Shown: positions 2,682-26,366, numbered from the stretch's first letter. The stretch is 64,000 nucleotides of DNA from an uncultured Planctomycetia bacterium (GCA_964352425.1 CAYGRZ010000004.1:2647-66646); one strand, 5' to 3'. The notes: generated by a model not told the origin, from the letters alone. Program-made: numbers and translations.

Positions 2682-3911
2682 TTATGCCTGTATGAACACT
2701 TCCCGTGCCGCCAGGGACGCCGCGCCGAGCACGATCGCGTTCTCCCCCAGCAGGCTCGGGGTCATCTTCACGACGCTCATCGTCTCTTCGAACCCGTACT
2801 TCCTCACCGCTGCCCTGAGCGGGTCCATGAATATATCCCCCGCCTTCTCGACGCCGCCGCCGATGACGACCACATCCGGGTTGAAGAAGTTGACCAGGTA
2901 CGCCAGCTTTACGCCCAGCGTCCTGGCAGCACCGGCGACGAGCTCGATCGCCACCTTGTCGCCCTTCTTCGCCGCGGCGATGACCGTCTCCTTGGTTATC
3001 GCCTTTACATCGCCCTGGGCCAGCCCCAGGATCTCGGTCGATATGCCTTTTTCGATGGCCTTCCGCGTCTCGGAGACGATGCCGAGATCGACGCCCCACG
3101 GCCTCAGGTGCGTGAACTCTTTCGGGTAGTTCTTCTCATCGCGCTGGAGGCCCTCGAACAATATCTGTAATTCGCCCGCGCATCCGCTCGAGCCTATGTA
3201 GACGTCGCCGTGGACGACGAGCCCGCTCCCCACGTCCGAATACATGTAGAGCATGTTCTCGACATCCGCGCCCGGGTTCAAGGTCTTCTCGCCGAATGCG
3301 GCGCAGGAGGCGTCGTTACCGATATAGGCAGGCATATTGAACTTGTCCTCGAGCGTCTTGACGACCTTCAGGAAGCCGACCTTCGTCCTCCCGCGCACCG
3401 GATCGGTGTCGTGCATGGTGCCGGACGAGTAATCGACGATGCCGGAGAGGCCGATACCGATGCACTGTATCTGGCTGCGGTCGATCTTGCTCTTGGCTAT
3501 GACGTCGTCAATGATCGTGATCACGGACGGGACAAGCTCCTCCATATTCACGTGCGGCCTGACCATCCTGGCCAGGCTTATCGCCTTTATCTTCAGGTCG
3601 GCGATGATGGCGATGATATTGTCCGGCCCGATGTCGACGCCGACGATGTAAGCGCTCCTGGCGTTCAGCTCCAGCAGCTCCGCCCTCCTTCCTCCGGTCG
3701 ATACGTCGAGGCCGACTTCGAGGACCATCCTCTTATCGATATAATAGTCGAGGTAGTTGGTGATCGTGACGATATTATAGCCGAGGATCCTCGATATCTC
3801 CGCTTTCGAGATCGGGCTCTTCTTCCTGATCAACTCAAGGATGGCAAGGTTCTTTCGCTCCCTGTCATGCAGGATATGGTACGTGAACATGCCGTCCGAT
3901 TTTAAAGCCAT
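2682..3911 (-). CDS. ROK-family transcriptional regulator (N-terminal HTH plus ROK sugar-kinase-like domain; NagC/Mlc-like).
   Basis: N-terminal winged-helix segment (ILELIRKKSPISKAEISRILGYNIVTITNYLD), a glycine-rich ROK signature (GIGLSGIVD) and an actin-like ATPase fold pattern. Confidence 0.75.
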   Translation of the reverse strand: MALKSDGMFTYHILHDRERKNLAILELIRKKSPISKAEISRILGYNIVTITNYLDYYIDKRMVLEVGLDVSTGGRRAELLELNARSAYIVGVDIGPDNIIAIIADLKIKAISLARMVRPHVNMEELVPSVITIIDDVIAKSKIDRSQIQCIGIGLSGIVDYSSGTMHDTDPVRGRTKVGFLKVVKTLEDKFNMPAYIGNDASCAAFGEKTLNPGADVENMLYMYSDVGSGLVVHGDVYIGSSGCAGELQILFEGLQRDEKNYPKEFTHLRPWGVDLGIVSETRKAIEKGISTEILGLAQGDVKAITKETVIAAAKKGDKVAIELVAGAARTLGVKLAYLVNFFNPDVVVIGGGVEKAGDIFMDPLRAAVRKYGFEETMSVVKMTPSLLGENAIVLGAASLAAREVFIQA

Positions 3912-4711
3912 CGCATCTTCCTCGCTTTGGAAAGGTATATATCTTTCAGGAATATTGTGGCGCCGGCGCTGTTGCCGACGGTAAGGTTGCCGAACTCGAA
4001 TTTTACCGCGATGATGCTCGACAGGTCGACCGCCTTCCTGACCGGTATGAAATTTATCTTGTAGAGCTGCCAGTCCCTCGACAGCGTCGTCGAGGCGTCA
4101 TGCTCCATCCTGTACGAGCGCTTGTCGATATCGACGATCACAAGCCCAAGCAGCTCGCCGCCGGAATTGCCCCGCGCGACGAACTTCAGGTCGAGCTTGC
4201 CCAGGTCAACCGGCTCTTTCAGCTCTATCGCGTAATTCGCCCAGCCGCTGCCTTTGGCGTTCGAGAGCACGATATGCTCGTCGGTCGTGCTGCTGCCGGT
4301 CAGGGCGTCGCCCATGAACGACGTGCTCTTCACAATATCGCCGTTGGTGGACGTGCCCTTCAGCAGGAAGACGCCCTTATCCTTCAGGTTCTCGAAGTTT
4401 ATCCTGCCGCCCTCGACCGTCACCGACGGTATCTCACCCAGTATCCTGACCCTGACATCGACCTGGCTCTTCGTGAACATCGCTGTGACGGCGACCGCGA
4501 TCGAGAACGCGGCGATGAGCCACGGAAGCATCTTCAGGGTGAACATGCCCCTCAAGATCTCTTTTTTGGTCTTCTTCCGCGGAGCCGTCTTAAGGTAGGT
4601 GTTCGCTATCTCGTCGCGCAGCGACGCCTGCAGGTTCCTCTCTCGAAGAGGTTTTTCCGGGGCCTTCGCGTCGCACCCCGCGTCTTTTTTCTCAGCCATA
4701 GTGACCGCCAT
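3902..4711 (-). CDS. Membrane-anchored hypothetical protein carrying a CBM-like beta-sandwich domain (paralog 1 of 5 in this window).
   Basis: Single TM anchor (LPWLIAAFSIAVAVTAMF). Its C-terminal block GATIFLKDIYLSK is paralogous to GVIYVDNIRF (19177..19800), GTLYFDDIGF (6633..8699), KGVVYVDEMIF (16814..19105) and GIIYFDLNFY (8696..14938). Confidence 0.5.
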   Translation of the reverse strand: MAVTMAEKKDAGCDAKAPEKPLRERNLQASLRDEIANTYLKTAPRKKTKKEILRGMFTLKMLPWLIAAFSIAVAVTAMFTKSQVDVRVRILGEIPSVTVEGGRINFENLKDKGVFLLKGTSTNGDIVKSTSFMGDALTGSSTTDEHIVLSNAKGSGWANYAIELKEPVDLGKLDLKFVARGNSGGELLGLVIVDIDKRSYRMEHDASTTLSRDWQLYKINFIPVRKAVDLSSIIAVKFEFGNLTVGNSAGATIFLKDIYLSKARKMRWL

Positions 4712-4716
4712 CTCTT

Positions 4717-5598
4717 TTAGCCCTTCATGCCGGTGAGCTTGATGCCTTCGACAAAGAACCTCTGGTTAAACAGGAATATGATGATGACCGGGACCATGGT
4801 GACGAGCGACCCCGCCATGAGGAGCCCCCAGTCGGGCTGCGCGTACTGGTACAGCTCCTGGAAGTACGCCAGGCCGACCGGCAGCGTCCTCTTCTCTATC
4901 GAATTCGTCACGAGGAGCGGCCACATGAAGCTGACCCAGTTGCCGAGCGATACAAAGATCGTCAGTGTCGCGAGCGCCGTCTTCGAAAGCGGCAGTATCA
5001 CCTTCGTAAAGATGCCGAACAGCGTGCACCCGTCTATCGTGGCGGCGTCCTCGAGGTCGCGCGGTATCGTCATGAAGAACTGCCGTAAGAGGAACGTCCC
5101 GTAGGCGGAGAATATCGCCGGTATGATCAGCGCCTTGTACGTATCGATCCAGCCGAACGTCCTCATCAGCGCGAATACGGGTATCATCGTCACAGAGCCG
5201 GGTATCATCATCGTCGCGAGATACGCGAAGAATATCTTGTCCCTGCCGGGGAACTTAAGCCGCGCGAACGCGTACGCCGCGAGCGCGCTCGTCGCGACCT
5301 GGCCGAACGTGACGCACGTAACGACGAAGAGGCTGTTCAGGTAGAACCGCGCGAACGGCACGACCTTCCAGACATCTATGTAGTTCTTCCAGTACATGCT
5401 CTTCGGTATCCACTGGATGTCGGCGAGGTTGAATATGAATACGGACGAATAAGACTTCAGCGACGTCGAGAGCATCCACAGGAACGGGATCACCATCGTG
5501 GCGCCGCCGACGATCAGGAAGAGGTAGACCGCCGCCTTCTTCAGGAATCCGGCGAGCGTCTTATCCATCCCTACCTGTATCAGGTCATCCTGCTGCAT
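4717..5598 (-). CDS. Carbohydrate ABC transporter permease (MalG-like).
   Basis: Six TM helices and the EAA-loop motif DLEDAATIDGCTLFGIFTKVILPL. Confidence 0.8.
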   Translation of the reverse strand: MQQDDLIQVGMDKTLAGFLKKAAVYLFLIVGGATMVIPFLWMLSTSLKSYSSVFIFNLADIQWIPKSMYWKNYIDVWKVVPFARFYLNSLFVVTCVTFGQVATSALAAYAFARLKFPGRDKIFFAYLATMMIPGSVTMIPVFALMRTFGWIDTYKALIIPAIFSAYGTFLLRQFFMTIPRDLEDAATIDGCTLFGIFTKVILPLSKTALATLTIFVSLGNWVSFMWPLLVTNSIEKRTLPVGLAYFQELYQYAQPDWGLLMAGSLVTMVPVIIIFLFNQRFFVEGIKLTGMKG

Positions 5599-5611: not shown

Positions 5612-6556
5612 TTAATAATGCGAATACTGGACTAACTTTCCGCCGAACCGCCAGTTGAACAGCGTGATGATAAAGACGACAATGAAGACGAACCACGCGA
5701 TCGAGGCCGCATAGCCGACGTGCTGCCAGCTGTACAGGTGGTTGTAGATCAGGTACTCGAGCGTCGTCGTCGAGCGGTCCGGGCCGCCGCCCGTCATGAT
5801 ATACGCCTGCATGAACCCTCCCTGGAAGCCGCCGATCACCGCCATGACGAATACGAAGAACGTGGTCGGGCTTATCATCGGCCAGGTGATGTTCCAGAAC
5901 TTGTGCCACGCGCCTGCCCCGTCCATCTCCGCGGCCTCGTAGAGCTCCCGCGGCACGCCCTGCAGCGCCGCCATAAACAGGATCATGTTATAGCCGCCGA
6001 CCATGATCCACAATCCCATCAGCATCAGCGACGGCTTGGCCCACGCCGTCGAGGTCAGCCACGGCACCTGCGCGAGCGGCAGCGAGAGAAATGTACCGAT
6101 CCTGACGATGATATTGTTCATCAGGCCGAAATCGTAGTTGTATATCCACGCCCAGAGGAGGCATATCGCGACACCGTTCGTGATCGTCGGCAGGAAAAAG
6201 ACGGCCCTGAAGAAGTTGATGAGTCTCACCTTCTGGTTCATCACCAGCGCAAGCGCAAGCGACGCCATGATCTCGACCGGTATGATGAGCATCAGGAAGA
6301 GCGTATTGGAGACGCATTTCCAGAATAGCGGATCGTTGGATACGACACACCCTGCCTCCCTGTGGAAGCCCAGCAGGCTGACGAAATTATGGAAGCCGAC
6401 GAACTTCGGCGCGGAGAGCATGTCCCAGCTCACGAAGCTTAAGACAAGCGAAAGCGCGACCGGCACCAGCGTGAAGACGAGGAACCCCAGAAAATTCGGC
6501 ATCACGAAGAGATACCCGGCAACAGCCTCCCTGTCGGCGCTCCTTATCCGTGCCAA
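5612..6556 (-). CDS. Carbohydrate ABC transporter permease (MalF-like).
   Basis: EAA-loop YEAAEMDGAGAWHKFWNITWPMISP and a polytopic profile. It lies 13 nt upstream of the MalG-like gene. Confidence 0.8.
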   Translation of the reverse strand: MARIRSADREAVAGYLFVMPNFLGFLVFTLVPVALSLVLSFVSWDMLSAPKFVGFHNFVSLLGFHREAGCVVSNDPLFWKCVSNTLFLMLIIPVEIMASLALALVMNQKVRLINFFRAVFFLPTITNGVAICLLWAWIYNYDFGLMNNIIVRIGTFLSLPLAQVPWLTSTAWAKPSLMLMGLWIMVGGYNMILFMAALQGVPRELYEAAEMDGAGAWHKFWNITWPMISPTTFFVFVMAVIGGFQGGFMQAYIMTGGGPDRSTTTLEYLIYNHLYSWQHVGYAASIAWFVFIVVFIITLFNWRFGGKLVQYSHY

Positions 6557-6632: not shown

Positions 6633-8699
6633 TCAGTCGAAAAAGTCCTCTACTTTTAACAATTCTTCTGCCGTTTTTGCTATCGGGTCGTTGTGGAAGC
6701 GCTTCCGTATCGCGCCGTTATTGAGGTAGTTATTGAGCGCTACGAAGCTCATCGCCTGGTCGAGACAGAGGTACTTGACCGCCACCTTGCCGGTCTCGGG
6801 GTCGATCGCGTCGTAAAAACCGTATTCGCCGTAGGCATTGTACTTCTCGAGCATTGTCCGCAGGTTCCGAATGGCCTCTTTCGGGATGAACTCAAGGGCC
6901 AGGAACGTCGCATGGGGCGTGATCACGCCGCTCTTATATCCCTTCATACCGAGCGCCTTCACGCCGTATTCCGAATATCCCTCTCCCGGCACGCACGACG
7001 GCGACATGCCGAAGACCTGATAGCCGAGCTTGTCGAGCGCGTACTGCGCCTGGATCTTCGCGTGCACAAAATCGTTGGCGCCCAGACCCTTTGGAGCCAG
7101 GCCTTTCTCATCGATTATCAGCGTGGGCATCAGCGCCTCGAACATGCTGCCGCCCCAGCTCGGCACGAACTTCATGCCCTCATATTCGTAGTAGCCGCCC
7201 ATCGTCGTGCAGCCCAGATACGTCTTCTCGCGCCGGTCTTTCGGGGCCTGGGTCTGCCAGTACCAGTCTTCGGGGAACGTCCTGGCCAGGGAGAACCAGT
7301 GCTGTGTGGGCACATCGCCCTTGCCGATCGCGATGTAGCTTACGGCCCGGGGCTCGGTGTAGAACGCGCCGTAGCGGTACTCGGCGTAATAATCGATGTT
7401 CGTGTAGAACCCGTGGTACATGTACTCTTCGACCGGGTCATAGAAGAACGAGAAGTTCATGCTGTCGATGATGGTCTGGCACGCGGGCGCAAGTTCATCC
7501 GGGAACGCGTTCTTGGCAACGATGAGGCCGGCAACGAGCCACCCCGAGTCGACGAACGAGATGAAGTTCGACGTCCTCTGGAAGATGGTGATGTCGTAGT
7601 AATTGTACGGGAAGTTGTTGAACTTTTCGAGCTTCTGTATCGAATCGAGCGTGAGCTTAAGCCGTCGCACCGCCTCTTCCTTTGTGATAAATCCGAAGTC
7701 GCAGCCGGAGACGATGCACATCATGTAGACGCCGACATTCGTGATATTCGTGTAATCGCCGACCTTCGTATCCGCCGATATGGCCGCCTTCTCGCTGAAC
7801 TGGATATTGTCGAGCGGCAGGCCGTACTGCCTATCGACGATCTGGTCGAAATACTTCCACGTGTCCCTGGCGATCTCGAGGAGGAATTCACGGTCGCTGT
7901 TCGAGAACGTCTTCTTGACAAATACCGTGGAGGGAAAACCGCGGAGCCGCGCTATGAGGAACCTCGCGAACTCCTCGGGCGGGAGATCTTTGGGCGTCTT
8001 CTGCACCCTGTGGGGTACCGGGTCGCTGATGCTCGGGCCGGGCGCGCCGGTGCTGACGAAGCCGATGTCGTCGAAATAGAGCGTTCCCGACTTGTGGTCG
8101 GCGCGCTTTTTTTCGAACGTGATCACGAACTCCTTGATGTCGTGCCAGTCGAGGATACCGTTCATCACATTGAGCGGGATCGAGACTTTCCGCCAGTCTT
8201 TCGTTACGCCCCGCACGATGTAGTCGGCCCTGATCGTCTCATCCCGGCCCTCGGCGTCCTTCTGCGATTTCTTGAACTCGATCTTGAAGACCGTCGTGAA
8301 GCCTTTCGCCTCGTCGCCCTTCACCCAGAACTCGAAGTGGTCGTACGGTGAGGCGTCCAGGTTGCGCAGCTGCGTCCAGAAGCCGTTGGCGGCGTTCTGC
8401 GGGGAATTGACATTGTATTCGAGCTTCAGCGACGAGCCGACCGTGCCGTGCCGCTCGGTGCCGTCGAGCGATGCGGCGATCCCCTGCGCCCTGTCCTCGG
8501 GGTCTTTCTCCCACGCTCCCGACTCGCCGCCGACGTTGTTGTTGAGCGCGTTCGCGTTGAAATCGGCGACCACGATCGACGCGAGTTTCGGCTCCCCGGA
8601 CGCGCCCTTCGCGGGGTTACCCCGCGACACGTACGCGCCCAGCATCAACACCGCCGCCAGGACCGCGGCAAAGAACGTGAAACGGAATTTTTTCATCAA
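6633..8699 (-). CDS. Secreted protein with an N-terminal CBM-like domain and a C-terminal six-hairpin (alpha/alpha)6 glycoside hydrolase-like domain (GH144/DUF3131-like, putative endo-beta-1,2-glucanase family). The likely ATG is at 8696.
   Basis: Signal peptide (MKKFRFTFFAAVLAAVLMLGAYVS). The CBM block is GTLYFDDIGFV. The C-terminal region is paralogous to 16814..19105 and 25089..26366 (PYNYYDITIFQRTSNFISFVDSGWLVAGLIVAKNAF). The family call comes from my reading of motifs and needs HMM confirmation. Confidence 0.5.
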   Translation of the reverse strand: MMKKFRFTFFAAVLAAVLMLGAYVSRGNPAKGASGEPKLASIVVADFNANALNNNVGGESGAWEKDPEDRAQGIAASLDGTERHGTVGSSLKLEYNVNSPQNAANGFWTQLRNLDASPYDHFEFWVKGDEAKGFTTVFKIEFKKSQKDAEGRDETIRADYIVRGVTKDWRKVSIPLNVMNGILDWHDIKEFVITFEKKRADHKSGTLYFDDIGFVSTGAPGPSISDPVPHRVQKTPKDLPPEEFARFLIARLRGFPSTVFVKKTFSNSDREFLLEIARDTWKYFDQIVDRQYGLPLDNIQFSEKAAISADTKVGDYTNITNVGVYMMCIVSGCDFGFITKEEAVRRLKLTLDSIQKLEKFNNFPYNYYDITIFQRTSNFISFVDSGWLVAGLIVAKNAFPDELAPACQTIIDSMNFSFFYDPVEEYMYHGFYTNIDYYAEYRYGAFYTEPRAVSYIAIGKGDVPTQHWFSLARTFPEDWYWQTQAPKDRREKTYLGCTTMGGYYEYEGMKFVPSWGGSMFEALMPTLIIDEKGLAPKGLGANDFVHAKIQAQYALDKLGYQVFGMSPSCVPGEGYSEYGVKALGMKGYKSGVITPHATFLALEFIPKEAIRNLRTMLEKYNAYGEYGFYDAIDPETGKVAVKYLCLDQAMSFVALNNYLNNGAIRKRFHNDPIAKTAEELLKVEDFFD

Positions 8700-11600
8700 C
8701 GCACCTTTATGCCGGCAAGCGGGCTCTTATTGATATCCCGGCGCACGGCCTTTATCTTCAGGTCACCCCTCGGTTTGTCGAGGTCGGAAGGCAGATGGAG
8801 CTCGTTACCCGCCAGGGTTGCCCCCACCACGCCTTCCATCGCCTGGCGCAGCATCCACCCGGCGGCGCCGGTGTACCCGTGCCAGATCATGCGCCCCGGC
8901 TCGAAATTTGTCAGCATGTCGGCCGACTGCTTGTTCGGCTGCCCGCCGTAGATCTCCTGCTCCGGGCCCTTCACGTGCGGTATCGGCGAGATCTTGAGCC
9001 AGAGACGATAGGCTGTCGCACGGTACTCGTCCGCTTTCGCGCGGTCGCCCCGCCTCTCAAACTCTTCGGCAATAAGGCGGGCAGCCCTGACGAGCCACTG
9101 CACGCCGTGGCAGTACATGCCGTTCTCACGCACGCCTTCGGGATATTTGCTCGAGCGCCCGAGGTACGGCTTGGTATCCTCGCGCAGCGCCGGCCACCCG
9201 AGGAGGATCGCATTGTCCTTCTCGAGGATCTTGAGGGCCGTGTTAAATATGGTCAACCCCCGCTCGAAGTTGATGCCGCTGGTAACCGCCCATGAGGCGG
9301 TGAGCGCGTCTATCTCCCATATCCCGCTGCCCTTCATGCCGATCTCAGTTCCGTCGTCGTGGATCGCGCGCAGGTACCGGTCGCCCCTCCAGGTCTTTTC
9401 GAGCGCCTCCTCGAGGAGCTTCATCCTCTTCACATAATGTTCTTTGCGGGCCGCTCCGTCCTTCCGGCCGATACAATCGGCCATCCCTTTCAGGATGTAA
9501 TGAAGGAAAAACCCGAGCCATATGCTCTCGCCGCGGCCCTCGCTTCCGATCTCGTCGAGGCCGTCGTTCCAGTCTCCCATCTGTATAAGCGGAAGTCCGT
9601 GCTTTCCCATCCGGTCATTCAGGACAAGGTCGATCGAGCGCATGCAGTGCCGGTACACGGTGTCGGAGCGGGTCGTGCGGTGATAGAGGTGCCCCCACCC
9701 CTGCTTGTTCTTTGGGAGCTTCGCGAATGGGAACTCCGAGTACGCGTAAAAGGTCATCTCGTCAAGGATCGACCGGTCGCCCGTCATCCTGATGTACTCG
9801 GCGACGCCCCAGGCAAGCCATACGGGGTTATCGGAGGCATGCGTGCGGCAGGAAAACGCCATCCGGCCGTCAGTGAGGGTGAAGAACCAGTGAAAGACGT
9901 CGCCCTCGAGGAACTGCTGGGACGCGGCCAGTACGATATGCGTGCGCGCCAGCGCCGGGTCGACCCATATCAGGTTTATCGTATCCTGGAGCTGGTCGCG
10001 GAAGCCATAGGCGCCGCTCGTCTGGTAGAATCCGCGGCGCGCCCAAATACGCTCGGCGAGCGCCTGGTACTTAAGCCAGTTCTGGTACCGGTCGAACTCG
10101 GGCGAGCTCGTCTCGACCTTCACGGTCTCCATGAGGCCCAGCCACCATCTTCTGGTATCGGCGAGGCTCTTCTTGGCCGCTTCGATATCCTTATATTTCT
10201 TTATGATGCCGACGGCCTCTTTCATCCGGTCGGTCTGGCCGAGGATGATCGCCACCGAAGCTTGCCCGCGCGCGGGGACCTCCAGCGTCGCCAGAAATGC
10301 AGCCACCTGGCCGTCGTCGGTCAGCTGCGTGGCATCCGGGGAACCCATCTCGACCATGTACGGCCGCGCGACAGTGCGGCCGGTCCCGAAGAAACGCCCT
10401 CGCCGTATCTCGTGGGATTCCGACTGCACCGACATCGATACGAACGCAGGACCTGAACGGAAGATGTTGCGCGGGTTCTCGTAGAAGAGCGCGTCGAGCT
10501 TCTTATCATAGCGGGTGGGCAGCGGCCCCGACTTCTCGGGCATGAACCCGAGCACCATCTGGAAGTACGGCGCGACCCTCATCTTTCTCGGATGGTCGGC
10601 GCTATTCTTTATCGTCAGCAGGTACACCCCCGTCGGCTCGTCCGGCGGAACGAAGACGGCCAGTTCCGTCGAGATCGTCCCGTCCGTCATGCGGAAGACA
10701 GCACTGCCGTCGACCGAGAACGCGCACTCGTGCGCGGCACCCGGCTTATTCAGCGGGTGGTATGTCGGGGAGTACCATTCGTTGGTGTCCCGGTCATAGA
10801 GGTAGATCGCCTCGGACGGTATCTCGCGCGTCACCATATCGGCCCAGTCGGGCGTCAGGCGGTTCTGCTGCGAATTGCCGTTGCACGAGGTGTGTAAGCC
10901 CCGGTTCGTCACCATGACCGAATGTATGGCGTTGGAGACCGCGTGGTCGATCGGCCTGGGCGTGAACGGCGTCTTCACGACGAGCGTGTTGCCGTCCTTG
11001 GTAAAGTCCGAGTACGGCACCGGCGTCCCCAGGGGTATCTCGCCGTGGCCGATCAAGAGAGCCCTCTTCTTCTTTTCCGGCGGCGGCGTCTTCGGAACCT
11101 GAGCCTTGATATACTTTTTGGCGAGCTCAACAGCCTTCTCTTTGTTCTTGGCGTACCCGATTAAAAGCTGCATCGTCACGGATCCCTTCGCTCCCACTGC
11201 CGCGTTCAGCATGAGGCTGCCGATCGGATCGAAGGTCGGGTATTCGTCGGTGTCGCGCGGGCTTAAGAAATCGAGCGTCTCGAGGATGCGGGGCGACCAG
11301 ATGCTCCTGGCGCGGCCGATAAAATCGAAGCGTGACGTCGAGAACCCCTCCGGCGCGACATCGCTTGCGAGAACACCGGTCGACTTGGTGCTCTTCTGCG
11401 ACGAGACGATAGCGTTGACCGAGCTGTCATACCCCATCTCAGGATAGAGGCGCTGGTACTGCGTGTGGAACCTGTCGTGGAGGCCGCCATTCAGGACCCA
11501 CTCGAGATACGGTACGACTTTAAGCGCTCGCGGCTTGTCCGTCAGGTTCTCGATCTTTATCTTCCAGATCTCAGCGGTCGCGTCCTGGTCGGGCAGGCTG

Positions 11601-14600
11601 ATCTCGACGGTCGTCAGGATGCCGTTCGCGGAATTGATTACCTTGAGCGAGCCGTCGCACTGCTCGACGATCGAGGGGGCGAACTTCTCCGCCGGGCAAT
11701 TACCCACGACCGGCCAGAACCGCTTGGGGCTTGAGGCGCTCTGGGCCGTATCGACGACGAATATGATCCTGCCGCACGGATCGACCGTGTCATACGAGCG
11801 CCGCGTGATATCGCATTCCTTGCCGGTGAGCTCGCTGTAACCCGCGCCGTCTTCTCTCACGATCGTTTTGTATTCCCTGTTGCAAAGTTCGTAGCTCGCC
11901 AGGCGGCACTTGCGGTTTCTGAGGCTCAGGGTGCGAAGGATAAATGAGGCCGCGATACAGACGAGGAGAGCCACTATTATTAGGATGGCAACCTGGCCAG
12001 GCGACATCGCCTGCAGGGCCGGGACTATCCCCTTGCCCCTGGCGGCCTCCTGGATGGCCCCTGACGTTGTCCACGCGTAATCCCAATCCTTGCCGCGCGG
12101 CAGGTAAAAAGGTATGAGGAGCGGCGCCCATGTCGCGAAACGCTTGACGCCTTCGGGGATATATCGCTGTGCCGATGCCTTCCCTATAAAGCGGCCTATT
12201 CTTTCGTCGAGCCTGTCCATGCCGAGGAAGCTTAAGTTCACCAGTGTGGCGACTCTTAAGCCCATATGGTCCATCCATATGAGAACGCGGAACCAGTCGA
12301 AGGCCAGCACCCAGACAAAGACCTGGAGGCTCCACTGCCGGAATGCTTCCGGCGTCATCGCGAAATTATTAAAGATGCACGTGAAGGTGTGGATCATGCC
12401 GTCCTGGTTATACCAGGTCGGGTCCGGCATCATGCGCAGGAACGTGAAGATGATGGGCGACATCCAGAGGCCCCACCGGAGGACGTATATCATGTGCTCG
12501 ACCAGCTGCGCGAACCCCGCCTTCGAGAAGAAGAACTTGATAGGGGTCTTGTCTTTCTCAAAATACGCCTGCATGAAGACCTTGTTGATGGCAAAGAGCC
12601 ACGCGGCGATGGACCAGTTGATGACACCCGCCAGAGATTCAAGAAAAAGCAGCTTGGCTCCTCCGGTGCACTGCCCCAAATCCATGTGCCCCCATTTCAT
12701 AACCAAGGGCCACGTGTTATAAAAACCTTCCGAAGAAAAAGTCGCCGCATTGTACTGATTTAATCGAGCCGGTGCTAAAACGGTGCTTACATAAAGGTTG
12801 AACTTTTCCACGATCACCGGGACTTGTAGAGTATCCAGATAGAATGCCATGGCGCTTCCCAAAAATGCGCCCAGGCACGAATCGACGAAGTAGAGCCGCC
12901 ATGTCTGGATCTTGCCCTGGCGCTTCATTGCCCAGACGGCATCTCTTAGGAAGCTTACGCCGCCTGAGGACAGGACTCCTATAATAAGGCCGAAGAGGCA
13001 GCGGTGTCCCATCGGCCACTGAACCATACCCCTGGTCAGGGCGAAGGCAAATCCGAACCCGACGACCACTCCCCTGGCGTAGAGGCTCCCGTCACTGTAG
13101 CTATACTGCGCGCGTTCGAAGAACTTGAGGCTGCCGTCAAAGGTCTCGATTATGGTCTTGAGGAGCGGAAAGATTAGTGCGCCGCAGACGATGCCGATCA
13201 GTATCGGCATGCCGCCCATTATCTTCTGGGCCACGGGCCAGCTCACGATCATGTAGAGAGCGTACATAATCGCCACAAGGATGGCGCTGTAAGCCATACC
13301 CTTCTTCATGCCGGCGTTTACGTGCTTTGAGATCGTCTCAGCCGTAGGCGCGACGCTGTGGCCGCCGTCCAGGAGGCCGCCCGTTATGAGATAGACTTCC
13401 GCCCACAGGCCGCCGTATGAAAGCATCGTCGTTACTATCGCGGTGATTGCCCTCAAGCCGATCGGCAGTTTTGCGACGAAGGCAACCGAACCGAGGTTTG
13501 CGATGACCGGGGCAACGACGGCACCGAGCGAGACAAGAAATATCGAAAGGTGCGCCTTGGGGGCCTTGAGCAGCCTCGACTTCGTCACGAGGCCGATCCC
13601 GTTCATGACGATCTCGTTGAAGACGAACATGACGATGATCCTGCCGATGAATTCTGTTATGTGCGGCCACGCGGCGAGGAGCCCCGCGCTTATGGTGCCG
13701 CCCAACACTTTTAGGAGGCCGACGCTCTCCAGGAGCAGCAGCCAGTTGAAGATGTACGGCGCGGCAAAGATGAACGCGGCGCTTGCCGCTTTCAGGTGCC
13801 TGCCGGACGAGGCGATCGAGCGGGCATTGGCCGCATGATAGACGACGACGGTGATCGTCGCTACCCAGTTACTGAACATGAGAAGCTGCATCCACGAGGA
13901 CGGGGCCGCCAGGACGCCAAGCTTGCTCGAGGCGACCGCTAGTAACCCCGTGAAGAGAGTATTCTGGAAAGTCTCCGCCGGTGTCAGGTGCCTGCCGGTC
14001 AGCCCGCGCTTCAAAAGCTCTGCTATGGCTGCGCCCGCAAGCCCGGCTCCGAGAAAACCGAATGAGGTGGTGGCCTGCAGCGAGGGCGCAAAGCCCTGAG
14101 AATAAACGAAGAGAGCGACAGCTGCAATCAGCATGGCGACAATGCCGTAGAGGACGTCCCGTGCAAGCCTCGTGAGAAGCGTCGCCGGTGATGACGATAA
14201 TTTCGCTATTTCTCTCATGACCTCATTGCGCGTGCATACGACGCGGGGACGGAAGATCATGCCAAGGAGCGCAGCTATGAGCGCCAATAGCGCCGCGAGC
14301 GCCGCGGCCGCGGCTGCCTTTACGAAGATGATATTCTTCTGGAACAGCGACATCTTATAGAAGTTGAGGTCAAAATATATTATACCCTCGAGCTTCTTGG
14401 ACATATCCCGCGGGATGATGAGAATAACGACCTCCTTAAGCTCACCTATCCTGTTCCAGTCAACCGGTTCCCGGATATAGTTCCAGCCTGTGCTGACGGG
14501 AAGCGAGACGACCTGCGCGGAAGGCCTGTCCCCCTTGACCTCCAGCCTTATCGAGATCTGGCCCAGCTGTTCCGGGGTCGAGACCCTGGCAGCGGCCATG

Positions 14601-19105: not shown

Positions 19106-19127
19106 GGCAAGGCTTCCTCTACATAAA

Positions 19128-19162
19128 GCGGATAGGCGCTTCTGTGAGATGCGCCTATCCGC
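19128..19162 (-). terminator. Perfect 12-bp GC-rich hairpin (gcggataggcgc / gcgcctatccgc, 11-nt loop) 15 nt after the stop of the CBM-only gene. It is probably a partial terminator or an mRNA-stabilising stem-loop.
   Basis: Read directly. It is followed on the minus strand by a TTTATG context and the RBS of the next gene. Confidence 0.5.
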
Positions 19163-19176
19163 TGCGATACCGGTGC

Positions 19177-19800
19177 TTATTTGTTCTTCGTGAACCTGAT
19201 GTTGTCTACGTAGATAACGCCCTTCTTGTTCGATGCGATCCTGTCTTCGAACACGACGACGAACTCGGTCAGATTCGAGAAATCGGTCAACCCCTTGAAC
19301 TCCTTCAGCGGGATGACGATATCCTGCCACGTATCGGTGACGCTGGTCACGTAGTAGCGGCCGATCTGCTTCGCGGTGTTCTTTAGCTCCACCTTGAAGA
19401 CGGTGGTGTAACCGACTTTGCCGTCACCTTTGACCCACAAAGCGACGTTGTCATACTTCGACGCATCGAAGTTCTGGAGCATCATCCAGAAACCGTTGTA
19501 CGCCGGGTTCTTGGACTCGACCGAATAGTCGAGCTTCATCGCGAAACCCGTCGAACCCTGCCTGTTGACGCTGTCAAACGCTTCGTTGCACCCCTGCGAG
19601 AAATCTGTGGGGTCTTTGTTCCACGCTCCGAAGTCACCTCCGATATTGTTCGGCTTCTCACCGCTGTTGAAGTCAGCGATAATGAACTCGTTCCCGCTGG
19701 CCTTTGCGGCAGCAGGCGCATCGGCTGCGCACGCGATGCCGGCCACGAGCACGACCGTCATGACCACTATCATGGCGGCATAGATACATCTCTTAACCAT
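19177..19800 (-). CDS. Small secreted protein consisting only of a signal peptide and a CBM-like beta-sandwich domain (CBM11-like; paralog 5).
   Basis: Signal peptide VVMTVVLVAGIACAA, then a ~170-aa domain ending in KKGVIYVDNIRFTK. Confidence 0.55.
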   Translation of the reverse strand: MVKRCIYAAMIVVMTVVLVAGIACAADAPAAAKASGNEFIIADFNSGEKPNNIGGDFGAWNKDPTDFSQGCNEAFDSVNRQGSTGFAMKLDYSVESKNPAYNGFWMMLQNFDASKYDNVALWVKGDGKVGYTTVFKVELKNTAKQIGRYYVTSVTDTWQDIVIPLKEFKGLTDFSNLTEFVVVFEDRIASNKKGVIYVDNIRFTKNK

Positions 19801-20015: not shown

Positions 20016-21488
20016 CTAGGCTATAGGCAGGGTAACGGTGAACGTGGTGCCGGCGCTGTACCGGCTCTTCACCGTGATCGTGCCGCCGTGGGCGTCGACG
20101 ACCGACTTGACGATGCTGAGTCCCAGGCCGAACCCCTGGTCTGTCCTGGACTTGTCCGCGCGGTAGAAGCGGTCGAATACGTGGGCGAGGTGCTCTCCGG
20201 TCATGCCGATGCCGGTGTCCTGTATCTCTATCCTGGCCAGCCCGCCGTCCCGTGCGGCGCGTACCGTTATCATGCCGGAGGGGTTCGTGTACTTTACGGC
20301 GTTGTCGAGCAGGTTGAAGAAGAGCTGCTTCAGCTGCTGCTCGTCGGCCTTCACCATTATCCCGTCGGCTTTGATGACCCTTACCTCTATATCCTTCTTC
20401 AGGGCAAGCTTCCCGATCGTGTTGGCGATGCCCTGCACGAGGATGCCCAGGTCGAGGTCCCTGCGCTCCTGCAGGATCTTCTTCGATTCGAAGCTCGCCA
20501 GCATCAGCAGGTTGTCGACGAGGCGTATGATCTTGTTCGCTTCTTCAAGGCTCGACTTCAGGACCGCCTCATACTCTTCGGCTGAGCGCATCTTCTTCAG
20601 TATCACCTCGAACTCCCCCTTCATGACGGTGAGCGGCGTCTTCAGGTCATGGGAGAGGTCTTCGAACAGCCGTTTCTGCGAGGTGAAGGCGCTGTCGAGC
20701 CGTGCGAGCATATCGTTGAAGGTCTCGGCGAGCTTCTCTATCTCGTCGCGGGTGCCGGGCAGGGCGAGCTTCAGCTTCATATTCTCGGCGGTGATCGCGT
20801 GTATCGTCTTTATCATGCTGTCGACCGGCCGCAGCGTGATCGTCGCCAGGAGCGAGCCCATGATACCGGTCAGGAGCACCGTGAGCGGGAAGAGTATGAA
20901 GAGCGTGACCTTCATTGTATCGAGCGTCGTCTGGATCGAGGTTAAGGGGCTGGCGACCTCGACAACGTATTCGACGCGCTCATTCTGGACCGCGGGCGTG
21001 ATGAAAACGCGGAACCGGACGAGCTTCTTCGTCGGAAATGACGGCTCAAGCGTATCGAAGATCGATGTGCCGTCCAGGGCCGAGATAAAGACATCTTCGG
21101 AAATTCTCGCTATCCCCTGGGTATTCCTTGATGAGGCCACGACCGTACCGTCGGGGTCATAGATCTGGATGATGATGTCGAGGAGCTTCGGGTCCTTGTA
21201 GCGCTCCTGGACCCATTTCTGGGCTATCGTGGCGAAGTCTATCATCTCGTCCTTGGCGTACTGGTCCGGACCGGTGCCGTACCGCTTGGTGCCGAGCTTC
21301 TCGGTCGCCCAGTAGGTGTTGATAGCGTGGATGATGCCTTCGGCCTTTGAGCGCAGGAGCGTGTCCATGTTCTCGTGGAGGCTCATCCTGACGTAGTGGT
21401 GGAGGGCGGCGCTGAATACGGAAAGCGTCAGCGCCAGTATCGCCATATAGACGATCGTGATCTTGAAGCGGATGGATTTGTAGAACAT
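20016..21488 (-). CDS. Sensor histidine kinase (2 TM, periplasmic sensor, HAMP, HisKA, HATPase_c).
   Basis: H-box LSHDLKTPLTV. The N, G1 and G2 boxes are present (QLFFNLLDNAVKYT, IQDTGIGM, GFGLGLSIV). Confidence 0.85.
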   Translation of the reverse strand: MFYKSIRFKITIVYMAILALTLSVFSAALHHYVRMSLHENMDTLLRSKAEGIIHAINTYWATEKLGTKRYGTGPDQYAKDEMIDFATIAQKWVQERYKDPKLLDIIIQIYDPDGTVVASSRNTQGIARISEDVFISALDGTSIFDTLEPSFPTKKLVRFRVFITPAVQNERVEYVVEVASPLTSIQTTLDTMKVTLFILFPLTVLLTGIMGSLLATITLRPVDSMIKTIHAITAENMKLKLALPGTRDEIEKLAETFNDMLARLDSAFTSQKRLFEDLSHDLKTPLTVMKGEFEVILKKMRSAEEYEAVLKSSLEEANKIIRLVDNLLMLASFESKKILQERRDLDLGILVQGIANTIGKLALKKDIEVRVIKADGIMVKADEQQLKQLFFNLLDNAVKYTNPSGMITVRAARDGGLARIEIQDTGIGMTGEHLAHVFDRFYRADKSRTDQGFGLGLSIVKSVVDAHGGTITVKSRYSAGTTFTVTLPIA

Positions 21489-21512: not shown

Positions 21513-22181
21513 TTATTCTTTCAGAATGTATCCCCTGCCGCGGACCGTCTGGATCAGCTTCTTGTCGAAGTCAGAGTCTATCTTATTGCGCAGGTAATTT
21601 ATGTAAACGTCGATGACGTTCGTGAAGGTGTCGAAATCGATGTCCCAGACGTGCTCGGATATCATCGTCCTCGTGACGATCGTGTTCTTGTTGCGCATCA
21701 GATATTCGAGCAGGGAATATTCTTTGGCGGTCAGCTCGATCTGCCTGGCGCCGCGGGTGACCTTGTGCGTCAAAAGGTCGAGCGCCAGATCCCCCGCCAG
21801 GAGATTCGTGGCCGCCTGCGGGCCCTTCTTCCTTAATATGGCGCGGACGCGCGCCAGCAATTCTTCGAACGCGAACGGTTTCGTGATATAGTCGTCGGCG
21901 CCGGAATCGAGGCCGGTGACCTTGTCCTGGACGGAGGTCTTCGCGGTGAGCATGATGACGGGCGCGGCAGTTCTCTTCTCTTTGAGGGTTCTGCAGACGG
22001 CCATGCCGTCCATCTTCGGGAGCATCAGGTCGAGCAGGATGAGGTCGTAGTCGTTCGTCGTGGCCAGGAAGAGCCCCTGCTCGCCGTCATACGCCACGTC
22101 GACGGCGTAGCCCTCCTCTTTCAGGCCGCGCTTCACGAAATCGGCGATCTTCTTTTCGTCTTCGATGACAAGGATGCGCAC
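21513..22181 (-). CDS. OmpR-family response regulator (receiver domain plus winged-helix domain). The true start is GTG at 22181.
   Basis: VRILVIEDEKK...DLILLDLMLPKMDG...LTAKT for the receiver, and a C-terminal wHTH (TRGARQIELTAKEYSLLEYLM...VRGRGYIL). The longer track ORF (to 22406) overlaps the SBP gene and codes for a Arg/Gln-rich low-complexity N-extension. Confidence 0.8.
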   Translation of the reverse strand: MRILVIEDEKKIADFVKRGLKEEGYAVDVAYDGEQGLFLATTNDYDLILLDLMLPKMDGMAVCRTLKEKRTAAPVIMLTAKTSVQDKVTGLDSGADDYITKPFAFEELLARVRAILRKKGPQAATNLLAGDLALDLLTHKVTRGARQIELTAKEYSLLEYLMRNKNTIVTRTMISEHVWDIDFDTFTNVIDVYINYLRNKIDSDFDKKLIQTVRGRGYILKE

Positions 22182-22183
22182 TG

Positions 22184-23509
22184 CTAGTAACTCTTCTCGC
22201 CCTTCAGCAGGCTGTCGACTTTTCCCTTGAAAGCCTTCACGGCCTCTTCGACGGTCTTTGTGCCGCTGAAGACGAGGTCCCACTCCGGTATGATGTACAT
22301 CTCCCTGGCCTCCCGCCACGACCCGCTGAACGGCTCGTAGACGACGTAGCGCATGGCGTCGTTCAGCATCTTCTTGTTGTGGGGGACCTTGCCGTCGTAG
22401 GCCCACAGGTTCGACATCGCTATTGTCATGATCGCCGGCTGCGCCAGGCCCGTCTCCGCGAGCTTCATCTGCGCTGCCCGCCCGGTGAGCGCCTTGATGA
22501 CCTCAAAGGCCTCCTTCGGGTGTTTCGTATCCTTCAATATGCAGTAACCGGAGCCGCCCGTGCCGAAGCCGCGCTTGCCATTGGGGCCCCTCGGGAACAT
22601 CGCGACGTCCCAGTCGAATTCCGTTATCTTCCGCAGGCCCGGCGTCTCCCATATACCCGACGAGAACATCGCCAGGCGCCCCGTCATGAACATGCCCTGG
22701 ACCCCCATCGCCATATTGCTCATCGTCACCGACGACGGCTGGACTTTGTATTTGTTGATGAGGTCTGTGTAGAACTGCATGCCGGCGAGAGCCTCTTTCG
22801 AGCCGAGCGTGCACTCGGTCGGGTTCTTCACGTTGTTGACGAGCGTCCCGCCGAACGCGTAGACGAAGTTCTGCCAGGCCCACGCGTAGAAGCCGTACTG
22901 GGTGACGCGCCCATCCTTGTCGAGCCTGGTGAGCTTCTTTGCCTTATCGAGCATGTCGTTTACATCCCAACCGTCATCCGGATACGGGATGCCCGCTTCG
23001 TCGAAGAGCTTCTTGTTGTAGTAGACGCAGGCGAACGGCGCGGTGTCGCGCGGTATCGAATAGAGCTTCCCGCCGACGGTAAAACGGTTGATGATCTCAG
23101 GGTAGAACTCCTGGAGCTTGAAGTCGGGGTCGCCGGTGACATACGGGGTGAGGTCTAAGAGGACATCCTTGGTCTGGAACGTGACGAAGAGGTCGACCTC
23201 GGTGCAGATGATATCCGGCGCCGCGCGGCCGGCGATGCGTGTCAAGAGCTTATCGATGTAGCCGCGGTACGGTGTGTGCTCGAGCCGCACGATGATGCCG
23301 GGATGGGACGCCTGCCATGCGCTGATGATATCGCTTGTGATATTCACTTCGTCGGGCGCGCCCCAGAAGGCGACCTTTATCTCGACGGGGCCGGGGAGCC
23401 CTGCGCCGCCTTTCGGAGACGGAGCCTCTTTACTGCCGCATCCGGAAAAAACGAGCACCAGTGACAGCGCTGCCACCAGGAAGGACGCGTGCGACTTTCG
23501 TATTCTCAC
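22184..23509 (-). CDS. Extracellular solute-binding lipoprotein of a carbohydrate ABC transporter (SBP family 1).
   Basis: Lipoprotein signal (LVLVFSGCGS) and a periplasmic-binding fold of typical ~440-aa length. Its stop lies 2 nt before the RR start. Confidence 0.75.
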   Translation of the reverse strand: MRIRKSHASFLVAALSLVLVFSGCGSKEAPSPKGGAGLPGPVEIKVAFWGAPDEVNITSDIISAWQASHPGIIVRLEHTPYRGYIDKLLTRIAGRAAPDIICTEVDLFVTFQTKDVLLDLTPYVTGDPDFKLQEFYPEIINRFTVGGKLYSIPRDTAPFACVYYNKKLFDEAGIPYPDDGWDVNDMLDKAKKLTRLDKDGRVTQYGFYAWAWQNFVYAFGGTLVNNVKNPTECTLGSKEALAGMQFYTDLINKYKVQPSSVTMSNMAMGVQGMFMTGRLAMFSSGIWETPGLRKITEFDWDVAMFPRGPNGKRGFGTGGSGYCILKDTKHPKEAFEVIKALTGRAAQMKLAETGLAQPAIMTIAMSNLWAYDGKVPHNKKMLNDAMRYVVYEPFSGSWREAREMYIIPEWDLVFSGTKTVEEAVKAFKGKVDSLLKGEKSY

Positions 23510-25017: not shown

Positions 25018-25088
25018 CGGGTCTTCCCCCTTATCGGTTAGATACCAGTATAGTAATATTATGTTCTAATAACATACCTGCATTATCG

Positions 25089-26366
25089 CTATTTGTCAAA
25101 TTTATTTTCGGTTTTACCGGCACTCGTGTCTTTGACGGTGAGGCAGAGGGCTATCCACTTTTTTACGGCATCCAGCCGCATGAACTCGCTCCAGATAAGA
25201 GACGTCCTGTAGTTCTCGATCATGAGAAGCGTGATCCCCACGTCTATGCCGAGATACTCTTCCGCCCACCACCCCTTATCGAGGTTAAAGGCATCCTTGA
25301 AGCCGTATTTGCCGTACAGGAAGTTCTTATGTTGTTCGTGGAGGTTCTTCAGGCCGGCGATCGATGCCTGCCAGTCAAAGACGATCGAACCTGCCATCGC
25401 GCAGGGCGCGATCGTGCCGTCATTCAGGGCCGCGCCGGGTTTGGCGCCGTATCCCTTGTAGCCTTCCGGCCCGAGGCAGGCTGTCAGCCCCCACGAGTTC
25501 TCATCGTATGTCGTGTAGCTGACGGCATTGTCCGCGCAGAAGGCGCGGTTCGCCTTGACCGCGTTGACCGAATTCTCGAAATAGTTTATGCCGCCGTCGT
25601 AGAGGTTGCGGAAGTCGATGAAGGCGTGCGAATACTGGTACGTGAAGAGGCTCCCCGTATAGCAATAGACGACCTTGAAATCTTTGTACGTATCCACGGG
25701 CCGCGCCCACGCCTTCCATGACTCGGCCGGGATCGGATGGGTCGGGGAACCTATCGCGAGGGCGTAGAGTATCATCGCCTCGCTGTACGAGTCCCAGTAA
25801 TACCACAGGAAACCCGATTCCGGTCTCCAGCCCATACACAGGACGGACTTACCGTTCAGCATCCACGGCCAGTCGACCCGCTCGTAGATCTGCCGTGCTA
25901 TCAGCTGGGCCTCTGTCCCCTTAAAATGTTCGCCCGCGTAAAGCGCGCCGGCGATGAAGAGCGCGGTGTCGATCGATGAGACCTCGGAATTCCACGTCCT
26001 TGAGCCCGTACGCATATCGAGGAAATGGTAGAGAAAGCCGTGCTCGTTCGGGACGACGTCCCTGAAGGTCTTCAGCGTCGTTAAGATCCGCTCGTACGCC
26101 TTCTCGCGGTCTATCCAGCCGCGCGATTCGCCGACGCATATCGCGGCGAGGCCGAAGCCCACCGCCGCGACGCTGCAGGGCGCCCCGGGGCGGGAGCTGT
26201 CCTTGATAAGGCCGTTGGCGGGGTTCGCCTGCTGCGCGAAATAGAGGATCGAGTCGTACTCGAGCCGGTCGAGAAATCTTTCGTCGGGAGTGGAAGCTTC
26301 GAGAGGGCAGGCATATCCGAGTACGAGCGATACGGATACCAAAAGGGCTACGGTCTTCAGGGTCAT
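25089..26366 (-). CDS. Secreted GH144/DUF3131-like (alpha/alpha)6 glycoside hydrolase (paralog 3, no CBM). The start is ATG at 26366.
   Basis: The signal peptide MTLKTVALLVSVSLVLGYA starts at the internal Met. The 29-aa Arg/Gly-rich extension in the track ORF overlaps the upstream gene and is rejected. Domain motifs are EHGFLYHFLDMRTG and SIDTALFIAGALYAGEHF. Confidence 0.55.
   Translation of the reverse strand: MTLKTVALLVSVSLVLGYACPLEASTPDERFLDRLEYDSILYFAQQANPANGLIKDSSRPGAPCSVAAVGFGLAAICVGESRGWIDREKAYERILTTLKTFRDVVPNEHGFLYHFLDMRTGSRTWNSEVSSIDTALFIAGALYAGEHFKGTEAQLIARQIYERVDWPWMLNGKSVLCMGWRPESGFLWYYWDSYSEAMILYALAIGSPTHPIPAESWKAWARPVDTYKDFKVVYCYTGSLFTYQYSHAFIDFRNLYDGGINYFENSVNAVKANRAFCADNAVSYTTYDENSWGLTACLGPEGYKGYGAKPGAALNDGTIAPCAMAGSIVFDWQASIAGLKNLHEQHKNFLYGKYGFKDAFNLDKGWWAEEYLGIDVGITLLMIENYRTSLIWSEFMRLDAVKKWIALCLTVKDTSAGKTENKFDK

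Follow-up and report, generated by a model that had tools for sequence, protein, structure and literature searches.

A window of 64,000 nucleotides (nt) of DNA, corresponding to positions 2647 to 66646 of contig CAYGRZ010000004.1 (GCA_964352425.1, recorded as an uncultured Planctomycetia bacterium), was analysed with regard to a gene cluster at nt 2682-26453. The window has a G+C content of 57%, its long genes are all located on the minus strand, and a contig identical to it is present in sequencing run ERR3804374. The cluster encodes secreted glucanases, a membrane protein of 2080 amino acids (aa) ending in a phosphorylase module of glycoside hydrolase (GH) family 94, an ATP-binding cassette (ABC) importer for sugars, regulatory proteins and several beta-sandwich domains resembling carbohydrate-binding modules (CBMs) (Table 1). 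Close homologs of the encoded proteins carry the annotation Candidatus Omnitrophota, and judged by the comparisons described here the cluster is probably a conserved Omnitrophota locus for the use of beta-1,2-glucan, linear or cyclic, presumably of other bacteria's making. A previous reading of the DNA sequence, here referred to as the original prediction, had suggested a putative beta-1,2-glucan system at this site. All genes which it named were recovered on the minus strand at their expected places, its end at nt 26366 being the ATG of the last GH144 gene, and Pfam searches identified the GH94 module, two permeases with BPD_transp_1 domains, a SBP_bac_1 binding protein, the ROK protein and the OmpR-type regulator with its HAMP/HisKA kinase as had been proposed.

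Table 1. Genes and protein domains of the glucan locus and of its neighbourhood in the window. Domains are given below the gene that encodes them; ORF, open reading frame.
Feature	Position (nt)	Residues	Strand	Evidence or remark
ROK-family protein, 409 aa	2682-3911		-	PF00480 E 3.8e-36; weak N-terminal HTH_24 match
269-aa protein with one transmembrane helix and extracytoplasmic CBM11/CBM30-like jelly-roll	3902-4711	helix 61-79	-	Hydropathy, AlphaFold2, Foldseek
269-aa protein, jelly-roll	3917-4399	about 105-265	-	AlphaFold2 pLDDT mostly above 90
ABC sugar permease, MalG-like	4717-5598		-	PF00528 E 3.9e-16
ABC sugar permease, MalF-like	5612-6556		-	PF00528 E 6.9e-14
Secreted 688-aa protein, signal peptide, CBM-like and GH193-type (DUF3131) (alpha/alpha)6 domains	6633-8699		-	PF10091, PF11329
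688-aa protein, CBM-like domain	8046-8582	40-218	-	
688-aa protein, GH193-type domain	6636-7919	261-688	-	
2080-aa membrane phosphorylase, signal peptide, CBM11-like, membrane and Cgs-type GH94 domains	8696-14938		-	Pfam, PDB sequence search
2080-aa protein, CBM11-like domain	14339-14803	46-200	-	
2080-aa protein, membrane domain	11930-14332	about 203-1003	-	
2080-aa protein, cytoplasmic Cgs-type GH94	8699-11881	about 1020-2080	-	
609-aa tetratricopeptide repeat (TPR) protein, N-terminal signal or anchor	14988-16817		-	TPR_6 E 1.1e-11; weak BamD/YbgF-like matches
Secreted GH144 with CBM-like, middle beta and catalytic domains (838-aa ORF)	16814-19105		-	PF10091 E 1.5e-63; weak CBM30 match
838-aa ORF, CBM-like domain	18419-18985		-	
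838-aa ORF, beta-rich middle domain	17990-18420	about 305-420	-	
838-aa ORF, catalytic domain	16817-18058		-	
207-aa secreted stand-alone CBM-like protein	19177-19800		-	PF03425 CBM_11 E 3.4e-7
207-aa protein, CBM-like domain	19180-19692		-	
Sensor histidine kinase, HAMP-HisKA-HATPase_c	20016-21488		-	Pfam
OmpR-type response regulator	21513-22181		-	Response_reg and Trans_reg_C
CUT1-type oligosaccharide-binding protein of ABC importer	22184-23509		-	SBP_bac_1 E 8.5e-41
492-aa protein, N-terminal hydrophobic segment	23539-25017		-	Without family match
Secreted GH144 without CBM, 425 aa from Met30 (454-aa ORF)	25089-26366		-	PF10091 E 1.3e-70
M48 peptidase and 339-aa MetE/MtaA-like protein, following the ROK gene	588-2666		-	
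2,656-aa protein, N-terminal hydrophobic segment	27147-35117		-	Directly upstream of the glucan locus
9,517-aa ORF	35357-63910		-	Four clusters of hydrophobic helices

The original prediction had listed three GH144/DUF3131-like paralogs. All three proteins match PF10091 (E values of 7e-23, 1.5e-63 and 1.3e-70), but they are divided between two CAZy families, with the products of the 454- and 838-aa ORFs in GH144 and the 688-aa protein being of the GH193 type. Among solved relatives, the 454-aa product matched XcSGL (8XUL, E 8e-75, 39% identity) and CpSGL (5GZH, E 5e-49), and the 838-aa product matched the same two enzymes (E 3.4e-64 with 36% identity to XcSGL and E 3e-40 to CpSGL), with similarity extending over the full domain. 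The general acid glutamate (E239 of XcSGL, E211 of CpSGL) aligns with E225 of the 454-aa and E613 of the 838-aa product, and the candidate base (the position of E142 in CpSGL) aligns with D162 and D545, respectively. In the 454-aa product the clan-defining phenylalanine (F286 of XcSGL) and the tyrosine of subsite -3 (Y367) are present as F270 and Y335. The 838-aa product has F659 at the former position and Phe726 in the tyrosine column, with a tyrosine located three residues upstream and a gapped alignment at this point. Both the glucanases and the CBM proteins possess hydrophobic N-termini, consistent with signal peptides. The middle domain between the CBM-like and the GH144 domain of the 838-aa ORF contains an Asp-box-like motif (STDTGATW) and gave a weak match to a Reelin subrepeat.

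The best PDB matches of the 688-aa protein were the transglycosylase domains of the cyclic glucan synthases (Cgs), i.e. TiCGS (8WY1, 1e-47) and Agrobacterium Cgs (5e-40). Its domain was compared with the reference sequences published alongside PMC12102758 by phmmer. The comparison with Group 2 of the SGL clan (GH193) yielded end-to-end alignments with E values from 3e-87 to 1e-55, including SkSGL (33% identity, E 9e-72) and a Sulfobacillus member (36%, 3e-87), whereas the best match to GH189 (1e-51) was split in two pieces and GH144 and GH192 reached 5e-20 and 1e-18 at best. All of 118 family members keep the acid E449 and the candidate base D384, and F520 and Y578 are conserved. At the column of the GH189 nucleophile (E1442 of TiCGS) the 688-aa protein has Pro567, which is conserved across the 118 members, and a Ser-Pro at this column is common to the domain, SkSGL and Group 2. 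Moreover, the helical insertion defining GH189 (~164 residues, positions 143-306 of the TiCGS chain, after alpha-4 and before alpha-5) is without counterpart in the 688-aa alignment (residue roles, nucleophile and insertion according to PMC10834661 and PMC12102758). A secreted cyclase of the Cgs type (GH189), to which the top PDB match 8WY1 had pointed, was rejected because nucleophile and insertion are missing and Group 2 scores higher over the full length; instead, the 688-aa protein is predicted to be an inverting endo-beta-1,2-glucanase of the GH193 type. The characterised members of GH144 and GH193 are all inverting beta-1,2-glucanases acting on beta-1,2-glucan only (PMC12102758).

Further evidence comes from the GH94 module of the 2080-aa protein, the gene of which overlaps with its stop the start of the 688-aa gene. 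PF06165 was matched twice in this module (supersandwich, E 1.2e-66), and PF17167 was covered completely (1-420 of 420, E 2e-62). Among solved sequences the module is closest to the Cgs phosphorylase domain (E 7e-109), as compared with E 1.6e-35 for cellobiose phosphorylases and E 0.0095 for LpSOGP (5H3Z). The GFRDQLQD, GVRENG..H and YTGxAGW blocks are kept; in GH94 enzymes the GFRD, ENG..H and YTGxAGW blocks would contribute the Arg, His and Thr residues that bind phosphate. In the alignment with 8RF0 the GDWND motifs of both sequences coincide, so that D2528, the catalytic acid of the GH94 domain of Cgs (PMC10901819, PMC11842490), corresponds to Asp1792 (nt 9563-9565), which is predicted to be the catalytic aspartate here. 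Specificity for beta-1,2-linked glucose is suggested because the module resembles the Cgs domain far more closely than it does cellobiose, chitobiose or laminaribiose phosphorylases. Neither a GT84 domain nor a GH189 cyclase domain nor a Rossmann-like insert was detected in the 2080-aa protein with Pfam and NCBIfam, only its GH94 part aligning with Cgs, and five homologs likewise contained no glycosyltransferase (GT) domain. It is therefore ruled out that the protein is a true Cgs, since both GT84 and GH189 domains are missing, and the label 'cyclic glucan synthetase' given to its homologs in databases is a misnomer for the whole family.

The periplasmic sandwich is separated from the GH94 module by a membrane domain, which spans about 800 residues, is predicted to form about 17 helices (hydropathy and AlphaFold2) and had not been mentioned in the original prediction. 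Lys/Arg clusters follow the first and the last transmembrane (TM) helices of the 2080-aa protein and therefore, by the positive-inside rule, place the sandwich outside the cytoplasm and GH94 inside. Homologs from Omnitrophota, Elusimicrobia and Planctomycetes share 45-64% identity in the membrane domain, which has many invariant polar residues and the motifs FNE..NG, GLWAEVYLITG, KTIIETFDGS, RWGLWMSPI, PTWYNQDG and DHMGLRV. It was without match in Pfam, NCBIfam and the PDB sequences (phmmer), residues 200-1010 showed no sequence match to Cgs chains, and no internal repeat was found by profile self-comparison. The AlphaFold model reached a mean predicted local distance difference test (pLDDT) score of 74.5, with 85-93 in the helical core, and when it was compared with the PDB by Foldseek, nothing credible was matched by the membrane domain, the N-terminal sandwich being the only part matched (to CBM11).

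A profile search against 1.84 billion representative sequences, for which the profile was built from a trimmed alignment, yielded 645 proteins of this TM-GH94 family, 297 of them at E values below 1e-30. Intact members that were scanned all had TM and GH94 parts and none carried any other domain. In a scan with one genome per species, relatives were found in 183 species, mostly Omnitrophota, the other carriers being Planctomycetota, Elusimicrobiota, Auribacterota, Chlamydiota, FCPU426 and Desulfobulbales. Further members occur in a metagenome-assembled genome (MAG) assigned to 'Deltaproteobacteria' (MEF3169293.1) and in Hyphomicrobiales (MFO1088716.1), and the profile matches of the Hyphomicrobiales proteins and of the cluster with the 'Deltaproteobacteria' MAG protein begin at position about 246-372 (P0252-P0412, L005-L008). 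The N-terminal sandwich is present in 71 of the 80 TM-GH94 loci kept for analysis, some homologs having two or three tandem copies. No description of a CBM-TM-GH94 architecture was found in the literature searched. By these comparisons, CBM-TM-GH94 is a misannotated and uncharacterised family, and its membrane domain, which is without detectable relatives, is what stands out most in the locus.

The membrane domain might act as an anchor that tethers the phosphorylase next to the ABC importer so that substrate is channelled, or as part of a sensor that regulates the enzyme upon binding of periplasmic glucan to the CBM. An importer is already encoded in the locus and a second import route would be unneeded, and searches with the membrane domain revealed neither a transporter family nor an internal repeat nor a channel fold already known. 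However, about 17 helices retained at such identity across phyla exceed what an anchor needs, the gene mostly occurs without an importer nearby, and no signalling output domain is present, which is why we consider an anchoring or sensing role unlikely.

According to the original prediction the same CBM-like domain occurs five times in the locus. This holds for the copies of the 207-, 688- and 838-aa proteins, whose paralogy is clear (phmmer E 4e-47 and 1e-15; 46, 37 and 34% pairwise identity, the 46% being that between the 207- and 688-aa domains), but the other two copies are the same only at the level of fold or superfamily. No pairwise similarity of the N-terminal domain of the 2080-aa protein or of the 269-aa domain to the other copies was detected. 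At the profile level, hhalign aligned the family of the 688-aa domain with that of the TM-GH94 N-terminus (E 8.5e-5 over 125 collinear columns) and with the 269-aa family (E 3.7e-3, over the C-terminal block pointed out in the original prediction), and in a six-frame search of the window the hidden Markov model (HMM) of the 269-aa family matched the 207-aa protein with an independent E value of 2e-4. Fold evidence covers the two divergent copies: the 269-aa model matched CBM30 best (2c24/1wzx, E 1.3e-7) followed by CBM11 (3e-7), the best match of the 2080-aa N-terminal model was CBM11 (E 1.6e-4), and the Foldseek TM scores of both ranged from 0.55 to 0.58 for CBM11 and from 0.53 to 0.62 for CBM30. 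In Pfam, the 207-aa protein narrowly exceeded the cutoff for CBM_11 (30.9 bits versus 27) and the 838-aa product remained below that for CBM30 (22.3 versus 27); no Pfam CBM match was obtained for the 269-, 688- and 2080-aa domains or for the 269-aa protein as a whole. The 269-aa protein has 108 homologs, all in Omnitrophota.

The C-terminal motif G-x-[IL]-[YF]-[VFL]-D-x-[IM]-x-[FL], which had been assigned to all copies, is found in its literal form in two proteins (0.005 expected by chance) and in a relaxed form in four, but the 269-aa protein matches neither. A further copy proposed to lie inside the 9,517-aa giant was not found: three family HMMs run with --max gave nothing, the best of 291 sliding-window hhalign comparisons had an E value of 0.0047 over 20 columns, and neither the motif regular expressions nor the six-frame HMM search detected a copy in the giant or in the 2,656-aa protein. 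The suggested tie between the giant and the glucan half of the window through this domain thus received no support. In the literature searched, no CBM family specific for beta-1,2-glucan was found. Since the domain recurs on GH144 and GH193 enzymes, it is a candidate for a new CBM family. An independent, compact locus of Ca. Ancaeobacter aquaticus (L003, 9302-17291), where four copies of the domain are again associated with beta-1,2-glucanases, speaks for the beta-1,2-glucan reading: the gene order is stand-alone CBM-like, CBM plus GH193-type, CBM plus GH144, a second stand-alone CBM-like and GH35, and TM-GH94 is absent. This locus resembles a cluster of Ignavibacterium album, the GH35 of which is reportedly a beta-1,2-glucosyltransferase.

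The binding protein of the importer is a generic CUT1 oligosaccharide binder by its sequence, its best solved relative being 6RJY, a binder of arabino-oligosaccharides (E 2e-45). This relationship is one of the points that would fit another beta-glucan as target, such as cellodextrin, laminarin or mixed-linkage glucan, with family names that mislead. The similarity of the CBM-like domains to CBM11 and CBM30, known binders of beta-1,4 and beta-1,3-1,4 glucans, points in the same direction, as does the existence of an SGL-clan group without known substrate (Group 4; PMC12102758). Nevertheless, we regard such a target as highly improbable: the characterised members of GH144, GH193 and Cgs-type GH94 all act on beta-1,2-glucan only (PMC12102758, PMC10901819), the whole-domain identity amounts to 31-39% with catalytic residues kept, the E values of cellobiose phosphorylases are weaker by 70 orders of magnitude, and the CBM similarity is one of fold at 10-20% identity. 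The hydrolases were placed in GH144 and the GH193 type and not in GH8, GH15 or GH63, and the sandwich had no non-carbohydrate-binding fold, these being the outcomes that the original prediction had named as speaking against it.

With regard to gene boundaries, the mechanically called ORFs at 16814-19330, 21513-22406 and 25089-26453 overrun their probable starts and overlap preceding genes. The 838-aa ORF, called up to nt 19330, likely starts at Met76 (nt 19105) with a signal peptide after it, and its ortholog in the Omnitrophota MAG GCA_026387175.1 (locus L004) has 763 aa. Similarly, the likely start of the 454-aa ORF is the signal-peptide-bearing Met30 (nt 26366), and that of the response regulator, for which an ORF up to nt 22406 was listed, lies near nt 22181. 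The ROK gene has a 10-nt overlap with the next gene and keeps this position in the loci L001 and L004; its product is probably a NagC/Mlc-type regulator of the locus. For the 492-aa protein no match was found in Pfam or NCBIfam, homologs are encoded in the equivalent locus of three other genomes (L012, L013 and L033), and an outer-membrane role is a guess. The position of the M48 peptidase gene beyond the ROK gene is kept in L001, L004 and seven genome loci, that of the 339-aa gene in L001 and L004.

The gene order GH144, TPR, TM-GH94, GH193-type, two permeases, 269-aa, ROK, M48 peptidase and 339-aa recurs with ~70% identity in the aforementioned MAG, and about 16 of the 80 genome loci show the complete arrangement or parts of it. 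Synteny retained in the MAG and in about 10 further genome loci speaks for the beta-1,2-glucan reading. The TPR gene, a conserved neighbour of TM-GH94, is found in the MAG and in 11 of the 80. Neighbourhoods were counted in the 46 loci comprising 15 kb or more; a GH144 or GH193 gene adjoins TM-GH94 in 10 of these, among them 8 of the 27 from named Omnitrophota and 2 of the 14 from other named lineages. All-against-all clustering of the flank ORFs of the 80 loci, which was partly polluted by antisense shadow ORFs, revealed no conserved partner of TM-GH94 beyond the genes of the glucanase locus and in particular no glycosyltransferase.

The glucan locus is adjoined upstream by two genes for very long proteins. 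The 2,656-aa protein contains phosphoglucomutase/phosphomannomutase domains I, II and IV at residues 1773-2345 and could process glucose-1-phosphate made by GH94. In the 9,517-aa ORF, weak matches were obtained to a SecA DEAD/P-loop domain (residues about 364-807) and to an OEP/TolC-like domain (about 3290-3475), together with radical SAM and SPASM domains (about 7640-7945) and a PEP-utilising domain (about 8685-8950). Both giant proteins belong to the described class of very long Omnitrophota proteins.

Taken together, two GH144 enzymes, one of GH193 type and a Cgs-type GH94, all from families with beta-1,2-glucan-specific characterised members, support the original proposal of a beta-1,2-glucan system, which most likely is catabolic. 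In the proposed course of events the glucanases, held on their substrate by the CBM-like domains, would cleave beta-1,2-glucan before it enters the cytoplasm, glycan would be captured by the free and membrane-tethered CBM proteins, and the ABC system would import sophoro-oligosaccharides. The cytoplasmic GH94 would then take glucose off the non-reducing end as glucose-1-phosphate, which would enter glycolysis, and the ROK protein and the two-component system would regulate the locus. For the membrane domain, the preferred though unproven view is that it brings the glucan into position for the phosphorylase or lets it pass through the inner membrane to reach this enzyme. The substrate is likely a cyclic glucan or osmoregulated periplasmic glucan (OPG) of neighbouring or prey bacteria. 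A predatory or host-dependent lifestyle has been proposed for Omnitrophota (bioRxiv 10.1101/2023.11.21.568195), and to tie the glucan substrate to it is speculation.

Several observations weigh against this catabolic interpretation. An ordinary cytoplasmic phosphorylase needs neither a membrane domain of 800 aa nor a periplasmic CBM, so that a part of the mechanism is missing. In 36 of the 46 well-covered loci TM-GH94 is found without glucanase or importer nearby, and the gene stands alone in Hyphomicrobiales and in the cluster with the 'Deltaproteobacteria' MAG protein; its function is therefore independent of this locus. The window contains neither an ABC ATPase nor a GH3 or GH1 beta-glucosidase for residual sophorose. 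Orthology of the binding protein with Lin1841, which binds sophoro-oligosaccharides, received no support, the E value between the two being only 5e-14. Finally, periplasmic glucanases are not necessarily catabolic, as OpgG and OpgD serve glucan biosynthesis in E. coli (PMC10514313).

The role of these E. coli enzymes in OPG synthesis also fits a biosynthetic function, in which CBM-TM-GH94, self-contained and without need of a glycosyltransferase, would build beta-1,2-glucan from glucose-1-phosphate by reverse phosphorolysis and export it through its membrane domain into the periplasm as an OPG-like osmoprotectant. Trimming or remodelling of the product would fall to the GH144 and GH193 enzymes, and recycling of fragments to the ABC system. 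Since the gene is autonomous in most genomes, the protein should do something complete alone, which keeps this alternative alive. Its GH94 is moreover of the type found within a synthase, the large and highly conserved membrane domain with its many invariant polar residues resembles a channel or an enzyme rather than an anchor, the product could be bound by the periplasmic CBM, and the phosphoglucomutase domains of the adjacent 2,656-aa protein could supply glucose-1-phosphate. Phosphate, however, is far more abundant in cells than glucose-1-phosphate, and phosphorylases thus usually run in the degradative direction. Furthermore, GH94 of Cgs trims chains and does not build them (PMC10901819), neither the protein nor its conserved neighbours revealed a module for primer formation or a glycosyltransferase, and an importer with an oligosaccharide-binding protein next to three endo-glucanases is a catabolic signature. 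A biosynthetic locus was hence given a low probability, and beta-1,2-glucan catabolism is retained as the most likely explanation for the cluster as a whole.

A more far-reaching proposal concerns the CBM-TM-GH94 protein itself. It might be a machine made of one polypeptide, which takes periplasmic glucan through its ~17-helix domain, pulled by phosphorolysis, so that glucose-1-phosphate is imported by group translocation, or which works in reverse as a synthase and exporter without glycosyltransferase; the membrane domain would then be a new glycan conduit and the five sandwiches the first CBM family for beta-1,2-glucan. We offer this combination tentatively and consider it rather doubtful.

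As cyclic glucans and OPGs, beta-1,2-glucans are polymers that occur abundantly in the periplasm of Proteobacteria and matter in symbiosis and infection, and enzymes for their degradation were discovered only within the last decade. Omnitrophota are tiny bacteria thought to be predators or parasites of other microbes. A conserved beta-1,2-glucan locus in this phylum would provide a testable nutrient link to the periplasm of prey or host. The TM-GH94 family (645 representative clusters, 183 species genomes and at least five phyla) represents a defined target which could reveal a new glycan route across the inner membrane, and if the translocation reading is true, its membrane domain is a new kind of glycan conduit.

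Among characterised catabolic systems, those closest to the locus are found in Chitinophaga pinensis (the SGL cluster) and in Listeria innocua and Lachnoclostridium phytofermentans, whose clusters combine SOGP with an ABC importer and a beta-glucosidase. An extracytoplasmic GH144, an ABC importer with binding protein and an intracellular GH94 releasing glucose-1-phosphate are common to those clusters and the present locus. The locus differs from them in that its GH94 belongs to the Cgs clade and not to SOGP and is embedded in the membrane, in the added GH193-type enzyme, in the five CBM-like modules, two of which occur as non-catalytic proteins, in the lack of GH3 and GH1 within the window, in a binding protein not of the Lin1841 type, and in its host, Omnitrophota. 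Cgs and the 2080-aa protein are both large inner-membrane proteins with a C-terminal GH94, that of Cgs being the closest solved relative, but the 2080-aa protein has about 17 helices versus 6 in Cgs, no detectable similarity in the membrane part and a periplasmic CBM-like domain, and the GH189-related protein of the locus is the separate secreted 688-aa protein, which is devoid of the nucleophile. SkSGL of Sanguibacter keddieii (GH193, Group 2) shares with the 688-aa protein full-length similarity (33%), the acid Glu, the candidate base Asp, the clan Phe and Tyr and the Ser-Pro; the N-terminal CBM-like domain and the Omnitrophota source set the latter apart from Group 2, which has been described as mainly Gram-positive (PMC12102758). 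The CBM11 and CBM30 modules of Clostridium thermocellum cellulases have the same beta-jelly-roll at 10-20% identity, but are attached to cellulases and lichenases, whereas the domains described here are located on beta-1,2-glucanase families. The logic of the locus is thus that of the known beta-1,2-glucan catabolic clusters, in a new phylum.

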